Made by a program: the position numbers and the translations under genes. 64,000 nucleotides of DNA from an uncultured Candidatus Saccharibacteria bacterium (GTDB lineage Bacteria; Patescibacteriota; Minisyncoccia; Phycocordibacterales; UBA12088): assembly GCA_964531785.1 (NCBI GenBank), contig CAZHFF010000002.1, positions 157,851 through 221,850 on the forward strand. Direction: 5' to 3'. Positions 4,343 to 37,916 of this stretch are shown here, one piece after another (position 1 is the first letter of the stretch; every line of letters begins with the position of its first letter). Under the pieces are notes generated by a model that did not search any database, had not been told where the DNA came from, and was given only the letters and a program-made list of their open reading frames with translations.

Positions 4343-4418
4343 GCGCGCATAGCTCAGTTGGTAGAGCGCCGAGCTTATACCTCGGTGGTCCTAGGTTCGA
4401 GTCCTAGTGCGCGCACCA
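4343..4418 (+). tRNA. tRNA-Ile, anticodon UAU (CCA encoded)
   Basis: Hand-folded cloverleaf: acceptor GCGCGCA/TGCGCGC, D arm GCTC-AGTTGGTA-GAGC, anticodon arm CCGAG-CTTATAC-CTCGG (TAT at 34-36), variable TGGTC, T arm CTAGG-TTCGAGT-CCTAG, A73, CCA. Confidence 0.85.
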
Positions 4419-14220: not shown

Positions 14221-14244
14221 TGCGGAGGGTGTGGGATTCGAAGC
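14221..14244 (-). repeat. partial duplicate (22/24 nt) of the tRNA-Ser 3' end (T-loop, T-stem 3' strand, acceptor 3' strand, 3 trailer nt)
   Basis: Plus-strand tgcggagggtGtgggattcgaaGc versus tgcggagggtAtgggattcgaaCc at 14379-14402. There is no complementary 5' T-stem, so it is not a tRNA. Confidence 0.85.
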
Positions 14245-14380
14245 TTACAGCTTCAGTACCCTTTGCTGCTCTTTTGGTTCGCTTCGCTCCCAAAACAGCG
14301 TGCAAAGGCTTCGAATCCGTGTCACGCGTTTCTGCGAAACGCTACACATACCCTCTACAGCTCTCATGATGTTCGATCTG

Positions 14381-14467
14381 CGGAGGGTATGGGATTCGAA
14401 CCCATGAGGGGTTTTACCCCCTACCTCGTTAGCAGTGAGGCGCTTTCGACCACTCAGCCAACCCTCC
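14381..14467 (-). tRNA. tRNA-Ser, anticodon GCU (class II, long variable arm; CCA not encoded)
   Basis: Minus strand GGAGGGT-TG-GCT-GAGTGGTCGAA-AGC-G-CCTCA-CTGCTAA-CGAGG-TAGGGGGTAAAACCCCTCAT-GGG-TTCGAAT-CCC... ACCCTCC-G. Acceptor 7 bp; variable stem AGGGG/CCCCT. Confidence 0.9.
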
Positions 14468-34368: not shown

Positions 34369-34388
34369 AAAAACGACCGCACCGGTCG
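34369..34388 (-). terminator. Rho-independent terminator closing the tRNA-CAU/echo unit
   Basis: Minus strand CGACCG-GTG-CGGTCG followed by TTTTT, immediately after the duplicated tRNA 3' end. Confidence 0.65.
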
Positions 34389-34398
34389 CCTTTCGCTT

Positions 34399-34418
34399 CG
34401 TGTTGCGGGGCCTGGATT
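34399..34418 (-). repeat. perfect 20-nt duplicate of the tRNA-CAU 3' end (T-loop end, T-stem 3' strand, acceptor 3' strand, 4 trailer nt)
   Basis: cgtgttgcggggcctggatt is identical at 34399-34418 and 34619-34638 (offset 220 bp). Confidence 0.9.
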
Positions 34419-34544
34419 CGGGGTCAAGTTGCATCGGTATTCCTTTACGCTTCGCTCAAGTAATACCGTGCACTTCCTCCCCGACCTCGCTTGCTCCTCT
34501 CCGCAGAGTGCGAATCGGAACAAAGCTGCGGTTTGCAAATCCGG

Positions 34545-34569
34545 ACGCGAGCAAAGCAGTTTACTCGCT
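34545..34569 (-). repeat. conserved 25-nt hairpin, copy A (AGCGAGTAAACTGCTTTGCTCGCGT on the tRNA strand)
   Basis: 24/25 identical to 37764-37788 (plus strand), in the same orientation relative to the adjacent tRNA. Stem GCGAG(T/C)AAA/TTTGCTCGC, loop CTGC. Confidence 0.85.
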
Positions 34570-34622
34570 GCCCGCGCCCACGTAACAGGAAAACGGCCTC
34601 ATCAGCCGTTTTCCTTGCCGTG

Positions 34623-34693
34623 TTGCGGGGCCTGGATTTGCACCAGGGCCTCAAGGTTATGAGCCTTGCGAGCTACTACTGCTCTACCCCGCA
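34623..34693 (-). tRNA. tRNA with anticodon CAU (Met, or Ile2 if lysidine-modified); atypical features
   Basis: Minus strand TGCGGGG-TA-GAGC-AGTAGTA-GCTC-G-CAAGG-CTCATAA-CCTTG-AGGC-CCTGG-TGCAAAT-CCAGG-CCCCGCA-A. U1:A72 pair, G at position 55, no GG in the D-loop, CCA not encoded. Confidence 0.65.
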
Positions 34694-36747: not shown

Positions 36748-36824
36748 GCCGGGGTAGCTCAGGTGGTTAGAGCGAGGGACTCATAAACCCTAGGTCGGAG
36801 GTTCAACTCCTCCCCTCGGCACCA
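36748..36824 (+). tRNA. tRNA with anticodon CAU (Met/Ile2; CCA encoded)
   Basis: GCCGGGG-TA-GCTC-AGGTGGTTA-GAGC-G-AGGGA-CTCATAA-ACCCT-AGGTC-GGAGG-TTCAACT-CCTCC-CCTCGGC-A-CCA. A31:A39 mismatch; G1:C72. Confidence 0.85.
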
Positions 36825-37647: not shown

Positions 37648-37721
37648 GCGGGTGTAGCTCAGCTGGTTAGAGCGTCCGCCTGTCACGCGGAAGGTCGAGG
37701 GTTCAAGTCCCTTCACCCGCG
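37648..37721 (+). tRNA. tRNA-Asp, anticodon GUC
   Basis: GCGGGTG-TA-GCTC-AGCTGGTTA-GAGC-G-TCCGC-CTGTCAC-GCGGA-AGGTC-GAGGG-TTCAAGT-CCCTT-CACCCGC-G. Confidence 0.9.
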
Positions 37722-37758
37722 CACACGCAAACAGCCCCTCCGGGGCTTTTTGCGTGTG
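37722..37758 (+). terminator. long perfect hairpin immediately after tRNA-Asp (terminator-like)
   Basis: cacacgcaaa-c-agcccc-tcc-ggggct-t-tttgcgtgtg. Confidence 0.6.
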
Positions 37759-37763
37759 CGGTG

Positions 37764-37788
37764 AGCGAGCAAACTGCTTTGCTCGCGT
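37764..37788 (+). repeat. conserved 25-nt hairpin, copy B (AGCGAGCAAACTGCTTTGCTCGCGT)
   Basis: 24/25 identical to the reverse complement of 34545-34569. Followed directly by AAGGGACTTGAA (37789-37800), the exact reverse complement of the tRNA-Asp T-loop/T-stem TTCAAGTCCCTT (37702-37713). Confidence 0.85.
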
Positions 37789-37916
37789 AAGGGACTTGAA
37801 AAGCAGAGCCATGTCGCAAAGCGACAGGCGAGCTCGGGTAGGAGCCACCCGCTAGAATTGGAGCACAGCGACGTGCATCCATAGGTCGTGTACTTATGCT
37901 CGGGTATACTGCAGGT

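Follow-up and report, generated by a model that had tools for sequence, protein, structure and literature searches.

A family of structured elements carrying antisense and sense copies of adjoining tRNA 3' ends in Patescibacteria

Why would a tRNA gene be followed, a short distance downstream, by an exact copy of its own 3' end? The question is raised by a tRNA gene with anticodon CAU (the Met locus) on contig CAZHFF010000002.1 of assembly GCA_964531785.1, from an uncultured Candidatus Saccharibacteria bacterium. We analyzed a 64,000-nt stretch of this contig, referred to as the window, and coordinates given without a locus name are those of the window. The original prediction, made from the letters of the window alone, had noticed hairpins and tRNA-complementary segments between the two copies and a parallel arrangement behind a tRNA-Ser gene, and had proposed a family of elements tailored to the adjoining tRNA. 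We find that such a family exists, on a far larger scale than expected. Our preferred reading, to which we give a probability of roughly one half, is that its members form a widespread and long-resident family of structured RNA, co-transcribed with tRNA or transfer-messenger RNA (tmRNA), that acts as an alternative-pairing element and mimics the top half of a tRNA.

What does the locus consist of? The features below were located with ARAGORN, the Rfam tRNA model, a repeat finder and direct reading, together with the evidence named in each line, and are listed in the 5' to 3' direction of the minus strand. X1 is the 3' segment of the tRNA itself, X' its antisense copy in two parts (X'a and X'b), X2 its sense copy or echo, and H a 22-nt hairpin motif (GCGAGYAAACTGCTTTGCTCGC). 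MFE stands for minimum free energy.

34622..34693, minus strand: tRNA with anticodon CAU (ARAGORN; Rfam RF00005, 65.4 bits)
34619..34638, minus strand: X1, the tRNA's own 3' segment and the template for the antisense copy and the echo (exact 20-nt direct repeat with 34399-34418)
34587..34615, minus strand: T1, the first hairpin, 11 perfect base pairs (arms 34587-34597 and 34605-34615) with a 7-nt loop, followed by UGUU (repeat finder)
34570..34583, minus strand: X'a, ACGUGGGCGCGGGC, antisense of the trailer and the acceptor 3' strand with one bulge, which the L120 and L125 orthologues share (pairs with the echo in the MFE fold of the unit)
34575..34570, minus strand: GCGGGC, part of X'a (direct reading)
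34569..34545, minus strand: 25-nt hairpin AGCGAGTAAACTGCTTTGCTCGCGT, made up of an A, H (9 bp with loop CUGC, including a U.G pair in this copy) and GU (direct reading, motif scan)
34534..34544, minus strand: X'b, CCGGAUUUGCA, antisense of the T loop and the T-stem 3' strand (inverted-repeat match)
34419..34533, minus strand: type-A core, with P2 (3 bp flanked by G.A pairs), a P3 hairpin and a P4/P5 arm (RNAalifold consensus, covariation, covariance-model alignment)
34435-34445 and 34458-34468, minus strand: second hairpin, at the tip of P4/P5, 11 bp at 91%, with loop GAGCGAAGCGTA (RNA GAGCGAAGCGUA, 34446-34457)
34399..34418, minus strand: X2, the echo, an exact sense copy of X1 (20/20 nt) that closes the outer helices of the unit
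34369..34388, minus strand: T2, terminator-like hairpin CGACCG-GUG-CGGUCG followed by UUUUU (direct reading, repeat finder)

All of the parts named in the original prediction are where it had put them. The terminator-like hairpin that follows the tRNA, the 25-nt hairpin, the exact 20-nt copy of the tRNA 3' end with its trailer, and the second hairpin, whose 12-nt loop agrees with its counterpart at the Ser locus (GAGCGAAGCGAA) at 11 of 12 positions, were all found as described. Other parts kept their positions and changed their meaning. GCGGGC, which had been called 5'-acceptor-like, and the T-arm reverse complement (GGATTTGCA, 34542..34534, perfectly complementary to T-arm positions 34634-34642) are the two halves of a single antisense copy of the tRNA 3' end, which H splits in two. 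The final terminator, described as canonical, is present on the minus strand as a hairpin followed by TTTTT, but the consensus scan called its stem (34374-34388) on the plus strand only. X1 itself spans the last 3 nt of the T loop, the T-stem 3' strand, the acceptor 3' strand, the discriminator and the trailer CACG. T2 is a diverged duplicate of T1, as a direct repeat at 76% identity extends over 49 nt and takes in both X and the subsequent hairpin. The direct repeats of the tRNA 3' end lie 220 nt apart, with no integrase or element gene and no credible open reading frame (ORF) between them.

The repeat is not a product of chance: 0.00 occurrences of the 22-nt H motif were expected in the window and two were observed, and both the unit alone (MFE of -84.2 kcal/mol, z = -4.7) and the tRNA together with module and echo (MFE of -146.6 kcal/mol, z = -7.4) fold far more stably than expected. 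Neither is it an assembly artefact. The closest relative that we found (L120-L123, with a neighbor protein 63% identical) carries the whole unit, and tRNA, module and echo are identical in three independent Logan assemblies of that relative (L120-L122); the contig of L123 ends inside the module.

Two further tRNA genes of the window bear a module, so that modules stand 3' of three of its six tRNA genes (tRNA-CAU, tRNA-Ser and tRNA-Asp):

37757..37870, plus strand: second type-A copy, after tRNA-Asp (37648-37722), scoring 88 bits (E = 4.6e-26) with the covariance model described below, outside whose seed it lies
14221..14355, minus strand: type-B copy, after tRNA-Ser (14380-14467), closely resembling the tRNA-Ser module of locus L087

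The Asp module was found by a k-mer search with tRNA tails. Its parts run in the order trailer ACACG, terminator, GCGGTG, hairpin AGCGAGCAAACTGCTTTGCTCGCGT and AAGGGACTTGAA, with H at 37765-37786 and the subsequent AAGGGACUUGAA antisense to the Asp T arm; AAGGGACTTGAA matches the reverse complement of the Asp T loop and T-stem 3' strand exactly, and the echo is degenerate, with only CACCCGC left. This module shows how the antisense parts belong together. In AAGGGACTTGAA, the T-stem portion is the Watson-Crick complement of the 3' strand (AAGGG) and not a copy of the 5' strand of the tRNA (GAGGG), and the acceptor-like piece and the antisense T arm are therefore one antisense copy, X', into which H is inserted exactly at the acceptor/T-stem junction. 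The Ser copy repeats the order of parts despite its different tRNA, with X'a (GAGGGUAUGUG), a variant hairpin (AGCGUUUCGCAGAAACGCGU), an X'b containing GGAUUCGAAGCC, a core with loop GAGCGAAGCGAA and a GUA-loop hairpin, and an echo (14240-14221) that matches at 19 of 20 positions. Motif, hairpin and covariance-model scans of the window detected no copies beyond these three; note that the type-A covariance model does not detect the type-B Ser copy.

How far does the family extend beyond this window? The exact 22-nt H occurs in at least 119 contigs of a one-genome-per-species collection. Among the matches listed, nearly all contigs are labelled Patescibacteria or candidate phyla radiation, including Saccharibacteria, Paceibacterota and Kaiser-, Nomura-, Magasanik-, Kerfeld-, Taylor-, Ryan-, Vogel-, Campbell-, Colwell- and Yanofskybacteria. 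A few are labelled Betaproteobacteria, Gammaproteobacteria, Bdellovibrionales or Endomicrobiales, labels that are unchecked. We fetched 126 loci (L001-L126, approximately 0.8 Mb in total, of which L001-L100 make up 661 kb). Of 125 units, 85 have a tRNA on their own strand whose end lies fewer than 150 nt before H (median distance of 41 nt), and these tRNAs represent 33 anticodon types. An echo of the unit's own tRNA 3' end follows 60 to 160 nt past H in 49 of the 85 tRNA-linked units; it typically starts at C56/G57 in the T loop and stops at the discriminator or a few nucleotides past it. When aligned on H, the units share one layout, comprising the tRNA 3' end, a trailer or long hairpin, the antisense acceptor strand, A, H, G(U), the antisense T stem and T loop, the core and the echo. 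The unit proper can thus be written X'a - A - H - GU - X'b - core (type A or B) - X2, often with a terminator at its end, and X' and the echo each copy the last ~20 nt of the upstream RNA, in antisense and in sense.

A covariance model (R1) was built from 17 type-A units, with the Met unit of the window in the seed, where it scores 132 bits. The model finds 136 copies in L001-L100 and 27 more in 23 of the remaining loci (L101-L126), giving 163 copies in many species. A type-A match also stands behind 16 of 78 tRNA or tmRNA genes that had not been chosen via the exact H motif. The upstream contexts of the 136 copies are as follows.

tRNA: 84 copies
tmRNA: 3 copies
directly after another unit (arrays): 9 copies
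contig end: 11 copies
other: 29 copies

Is the element tied to tRNA? Most copies do lie 3' of a tRNA, as predicted, but not every one. In L048 and L067, the gene directly before the unit is a tmRNA, confirmed by Rfam. One unit in L096 comes after the rplL terminator, and the segment that it copies is the 3' strand of that terminator with its U tract, GGGGCTTTTGTTTTGCGC; exact copies of GGGGCTTTTGTTTTGCGC lie at 2378-2395 and 2636-2653, and the sequences flanking H are complementary to it. What is copied here is a local terminator and not a tRNA. The copied segment is displaced into the trailer in the tRNA-Trp copies (L078, L104), and orphan units in L090 have perfect X':echo helices with no detectable tRNA upstream. 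Some units have no H or no acceptor part, and H is optional or variable in some copies. The rule is that the element copies the 3' end of whatever RNA precedes it, in antisense and in sense, and is not strictly tRNA-specific. There is a weak trend linking modules to tRNAs without an encoded CCA, which account for 66 of 85 module-bearing tRNAs and 38 of 62 module-free ones.

Several observations concern copies in unusual settings. In L033 (1130-1281), L084 (7760-7879) and L086 (13-139), H occurs in another, unannotated context with flanks GGGTCGAGGCGGC and GCCGCCGAGACGGG, and the upstream sequence resembles a tRNA 5' half (D arm); these may be another RNA that shares H, or an H-interrupted tRNA-like gene. 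A recurring GGTTCTAAC(N~20)GC(C/G)CAC followed by a terminator precedes orphan units in L090 (770-800, 2500-2540), L040, L093, L011 and L095. This recurring sequence has no Rfam match, and could be a decayed tRNA or the tail of some other conserved RNA. L001, L003, L038 and L116, with unchecked labels of Betaproteobacteria or Burkholderiales, have a minimal unit behind tRNAs with an encoded CCA, consisting of a core of ~63 nt with one stem-loop and GGGGTCGCGGTACGTGAC; the echo of L001 takes in the whole terminator. Differing arms share an apical loop of the motif GAGCGAAGCG(A/U)A or one of its variants GAACGAAGUGAG, GAGCGACGGCGAG and GAACGCAGUGAA (34446-34457 and 14278-14289 in the window, and in many loci), and the motif also serves as the spacer between tRNA and X' where the terminator is absent. 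GCGAAGC, which is contained in this type of loop motif, is a very stable DNA mini-hairpin.

Do the units share a fold? All 12 units for which MFE folds were compared take the same form, with a 7- to 8-bp acceptor-like helix (X'a:echo), H (9 bp, loop CUGC), a 9- to 10-bp T-like helix (X'b:echo) and an inner junction with two arms. In these 12 units and in that of the window, the 7-bp acceptor-like helix stacks on the T-stem-like helix, with a contiguous 3' strand (the echo) and a discriminator, as in the top half of a tRNA; an extended helix and the core replace the T loop of the tRNA. An alignment of the 17 type-A units, including the Met unit of the window and its L120 and L125 orthologues, supports the fold by covariation. 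RNAalifold finds 33 pairs, of which 26 have compensatory double changes, against 14.3 in column shuffles. Paired cells amount to 94%, against 75% in the shuffles (0 of 500 reached the observed value) and 31 to 42% when partners are slid by one to three columns. The stem of H covaries too: it reads GCGAGCAAC-CTGC-GTTGCTCGC in L120 (A-U to C-G), GAAAGGTGC-CTTC-GCACCTTTC in L125, where the entire stem has changed, and GAAAGTGCC-CTGC-GGCACTTTC and similar stems in other loci.

There are at least two core types, type A (..CGGAGC..CGAG.CGGGGUCG..GUGAC) and type B (ACUUUUC..GAAAAGUACC.. with a GUA-loop hairpin). The Met and Asp units of the window are of type A, and the Ser unit, with its variant hairpin, is of type B. 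The junction nucleotides of the core are conserved and unpaired. H is identical among many copies despite their diverged cores, which speaks for a sequence-specific constraint on H, and suggests that the invariant hairpin is a specific site of protein binding or tertiary contact. Of the two strands, the tRNA-sense strand has the more stable predicted fold in 44 of 49 units (Wilcoxon P = 6e-8), and it is on this strand that G.U pairs occur in several H variants. By contrast, the outer helices are almost purely Watson-Crick, and their counts of 45 G.U and 32 A.C pairs, taken in a crude register, are uninformative on strand or mechanism.

X' has two possible partners, and they are mutually exclusive. 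Either the echo or the 3' half of the tRNA itself can take up X', and in the second case the first hairpin is prolonged downwards; both options exist throughout the family. Full transcripts of 49 loci were folded with X' restricted to upstream or to downstream pairing. The upstream state was more stable in all 49, by a median of 9.6 kcal/mol in nearest-neighbor energies. In the MFE fold of the full window transcript, the echo closes the acceptor and T stems of the cloverleaf, X' holds the original 3' half of the tRNA, and the T loop contains H and the core as an insertion. An echo-closed cloverleaf is the MFE structure in 46 of 49 loci. Each pairing has also left an evolutionary trace: X':echo pairing is kept in the L090 orphans, and X':tRNA pairing is kept in L125 and in the Asp unit of the window despite their decayed echoes. 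X'b reaches 2 to 4 nt deeper into the T loop than the echo does.

How long have the modules been resident? The Met modules (window, L120 and L125) and the Asp modules (window and L126) are orthologous and lie in conserved synteny. Gene order in L120-L123 is ligA-gatC-gatA-SH3-like-[tRNA-CAU + module + echo]-GIY-YIG-GH18. X'b tracks its own tRNA in L120 (CTGGATTTGCA) and in L125 (neighbor protein 53% identical), where the module is present, X'b (CCGGAATTGCA) matches the T loop of that tRNA and the echo is reduced to its acceptor part. L126 retains a module after tRNA-Asp, which scores 110 bits with the covariance model. Comparison of L124, L120 and the window shows that the sole terminator behind the tRNA of L124, a relative without a module, is homologous to the tRNA-proximal hairpin (T1) of the other two, so the module apparently lies downstream of the native terminator. 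The distal terminator of the window is similar as well, the block of X and terminator being duplicated. At the Met locus, the module starts with ACGTG, the complement of the trailer. Core identity is 0.573 for the same anticodon in different species and 0.539 for different anticodons (P = 0.02), and is 0.55 between different tRNAs of one genome. Divergence within a genome thus resembles that between genomes, which indicates that the copies are old and diverged, with no recent burst. A gene for a GIY-YIG-domain protein directly follows the tRNA-module unit of L120 (5761-6105). Since the window, L124 and L126 lack this gene, it may have to do with the rearrangement in L120 described below.

Is this a known family? 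A scan of the window against Rfam 15 at gathering thresholds, including group I, tmRNA, self-cleaving ribozyme and riboswitch models, returned only tRNA and no match to the module. Between 34300 and 34720 at E <= 10, the only extra matches were at chance level (OrzO-P at 22 bits and Twister-sister at 18.6 bits), far under threshold and located over the tRNA or the first hairpin. Rfam likewise matched none of the canonical copies in L058, L001 and L063, exact H had no match in IMG/VR, and phage records compared with the CAU region matched the tRNA part and nothing of the module. A full-text literature search found no description of the family, which papers outside the searched library could hold, and the family is apparently undescribed. 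To our knowledge, no described system has antisense and sense copies of a host RNA 3' end flanking a conserved hairpin and core at dozens of tRNA types throughout a phylum-level group. Two published candidates were considered. TIGR arrays, known from phages and parasitic bacteria, have alternating 8-12-nt repeats and 9-nt spacers beside a Tas gene (PMC12045711), a description at odds with 120-250-nt units that contain a 22-nt hairpin. Group I tRNA introns (PMC13011429) also differ from the tRNA-linked element.

Loose relatives can nonetheless be named. Like the t-elements of plant mitochondria, mascRNA/MALAT1, plant dicistronic tRNA-snoRNA genes and the small RNAs of bacterial 3' external transcribed spacers, the element would be a non-coding RNA riding on a tRNA transcription unit, and its predicted self-folded form has an acceptor/T-stem stack recognizable by tRNA end-processing enzymes. 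Unlike them, its stems copy the sequence of the adjoining tRNA, a ~100-nt core stands for the T loop and a conserved hairpin for the D and anticodon arms, and an added antisense copy is predicted to be able to invade the tRNA. As in riboswitches and attenuators, one strand (X') has two alternative partners in the predicted folds, and X':echo closes a conserved, covarying multi-helix core much as a P1 helix closes an aptamer. In contrast to them, the element lies downstream of the RNA that it would control, matches no Rfam aptamer, and has as its putative output tRNA folding or 3' maturation, not transcription or translation of a downstream gene. With REP/BIME and small extragenic palindromes, it shares a conserved palindromic hairpin of ~22-25 nt that occurs many times per genome in 3' intergenic positions. 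Here, however, H is embedded in a larger unit with locus-tailored flanks and is conserved across a phylum-level group, not within one species.

What, then, might the element do? If it is the structured RNA that we favor, it would be transcribed with the tRNA; polymerase would read through the first hairpin, or continue directly at loci that lack it, and X' would choose between its two partners. With X' on the echo, the unit would fold on itself, stacking a 7-bp acceptor-like helix on a T-like helix of ~10 bp, with H branching at the place of the D and anticodon arms. The result would be a mimic of the top half of the cognate tRNA, which could be released and end-matured by RNase P, RNase Z and the CCA-adding enzyme. 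With X' on the tRNA's own 3' half, that half would be displaced and the echo would re-close the cloverleaf. Folding and 3'-end maturation of the tRNA would in this way depend on the state of the conserved core. Candidates for the sensor and the binding site are this core and the invariant H. A bolder version, which we consider rather doubtful, is that many tRNA and tmRNA genes of Patescibacteria have a built-in 3'-end swap device, in which the extension invades the finished tRNA and the echo re-closes the cloverleaf, leaving the conserved core enclosed by the T loop; it would be an intron-like, possibly excised and ligated, genome-wide regulator of tRNA maturation, perhaps originating from a domesticated hairpin-att element.

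Several points weigh against the structured-RNA reading. Transcription, read-through of the first hairpin and processing are all steps that we infer, and the first hairpin often resembles a strong terminator, which would leave the element silent. The preference of 9.6 kcal/mol for the swapped state may be overstated, because nearest-neighbor energies ignore the tertiary structure and modifications of tRNA. The near absence of non-Watson-Crick pairs in the outer helices means that these alone cannot separate selection on RNA from an inverted duplication at the DNA level, and the covariation is equally compatible with folded single-stranded DNA (ssDNA). Neither the rplL copy nor the tRNA-Trp copies, in which X has moved into the trailer, fit the idea of top-half mimicry. 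The whole tRNA unit is inverted in L120 relative to the window. L124 and L126 (neighbor proteins 57% and 52% identical) have the tRNA-CAU and a terminator with no module. Tandem arrays differ from one close relative to another: behind tRNA-Lys, L030 strings together three cores (A, A, B) whose internal junctions read T-stem 3' strand - H - antisense T stem, and L016 has B and then A. Such presence and absence, inversion and array variation are also expected of a mobile element.

The alternative that deserves most attention, unlikely as we think it, is accordingly a mobile element that is selfish and non-autonomous and inserts itself in the form of a folded single strand. The hairpin of X' and X would mimic the duplex target in a small circular ssDNA, and recombination would leave the order target copy, loop, inverted arm, cargo, target copy, with H as the site of a recombinase or accessory protein and the core as cargo. 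CTXphi-type elements, which rely on the Xer recombinases of their host, leave such a layout, and a loose parallel is offered by integron cassettes and their folded attC sites. The observed order X1 - hairpin - X' - core - X2 is exactly the predicted one, and the family shares cassette-like arrays with such hairpin-attP integration (CTXphi/IMEX; integron attC). Together with classical attL/attR elements, it also shares a direct repeat from the T loop to the 3' end, the usual identity block of elements that integrate into tRNA or tmRNA genes, and the use of tmRNA. The same tRNA is empty in some relatives and occupied in others, array content is variable, identical H in distant lineages could mean horizontal spread, and G.T-tolerant covariation suits ssDNA as well as RNA. 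On the other hand, there are no recombinase, replication, phage or other genes inside or consistently beside the units, the cargo is merely a structured sequence of ~100 nt, and no replication route is evident for an element of 150-250 nt. H has no exact match among the viral contigs of IMG/VR, and phage records match the tRNA portion alone. Cores within a genome are ~45% diverged and orthologues are syntenic, so recent movement is not evident. The duplicated segment is not a fixed recombination site; it can be any local 3' end, such as the rplL terminator or the tRNA-Trp trailer, which is awkward for a site-specific recombinase. Finally, the tRNA-adjacent sequence in L120 appears to be a native terminator and not foreign DNA.

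The predicted folds could also be those of a T loop interrupted by an intervening sequence, the 3' exon being duplicated; the tRNA 5' part would be followed by its own 3' half, hairpin, X', H and core, and then by the echo. Everything between the 5' part and the echo would be removed by an unspecified cleavage and ligation, or by the core acting as a small ribozyme. The echo-closed cloverleaf with its compact T-loop insertion, predicted in nearly all loci, fits this idea, as do the conserved unpaired core nucleotides, which recall catalytic or ligand-binding RNAs. Yet the upstream tRNA is already complete without splicing, no group I or other ribozyme model matches, echoes are decayed in some copies, which is unexpected of a true 3' exon, and the rplL copy has no tRNA at all. 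We know of no bacterial splicing machinery for the T-loop position. Patescibacteria are known to be rich in tRNA introns (PMC13011429), which counts for the idea. It fits the predicted fold, but nothing demands it, and we judge it very improbable.

The remaining explanation, the scar of a classical integrase insertion (attL/attR) with nearly all of its interior deleted, or else a chance local duplication, is excluded by the family data. A direct repeat that begins in the T loop is what such a scar would leave, and tRNA and tmRNA genes are classical integration targets. However, the same covarying hairpin and core lie between the repeats at more than 160 sites in many species, no integrase remnant is present, the antisense copy would be left unexplained and a non-tRNA site (rplL) exists; a chance duplication is further contradicted by the expected H count of 0.00 in the window.

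Some features of the surroundings remain to be recorded. The CAU module has SH3-like protein and GH18 genes as neighbors, and the window also encodes ligA, gatA and PilM, as would be expected of a Patescibacteria chromosome; of the few named homologues of a neighboring protein, most are from Patescibacteria. A consensus scan found no promoter for the CAU module. Coding ORFs that overlap the module were taken as spurious, the region being a covarying, RNA-type structure. The same type of tRNA-CAU is also found in L120, L124, L125, L126, L077 and L103. Its T loop is atypical (UGCAAAU or UGCAAUU, position 55 being a G), the usual GG is missing from its D loop (AGUAGUA), and these odd loops are kept in distant relatives (L120 5393-5464, L124 4375-4446, L125 6720-6793 and L126 3348-3419). 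A second, more ordinary tRNA-CAU with an encoded CCA lies at 36748-36824 of the window. A tRNA-Ile(UAU), uncommon in bacteria, lies at 4343-4418 on the plus strand, with an encoded CCA and no module 3' of it; this tRNA also occurs in L066 and L094.

Patescibacteria have very small genomes, yet a sizeable share of the tRNA genes in the fetched loci bear a structured appendix of 120-250 nt. Under either reading, RNA or mobile element, the covariance model and the 22-nt marker can be used to annotate thousands of genomes, and the invariant H points to a putative conserved binding partner. If the family is a mobile element, it would be a new and minimal kind that copies its own target in both orientations. 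If the 3'-end swap device is true, it would be a regulatory RNA in organisms with minimal protein-based regulation. If the units are functional RNA, they would constitute an RNA class that is both new and abundant, linked to the biogenesis of tRNA and tmRNA in a major branch of Bacteria that is poorly understood, and could explain how tRNA 3' ends without an encoded CCA are handled, or how tRNA supply is tuned.

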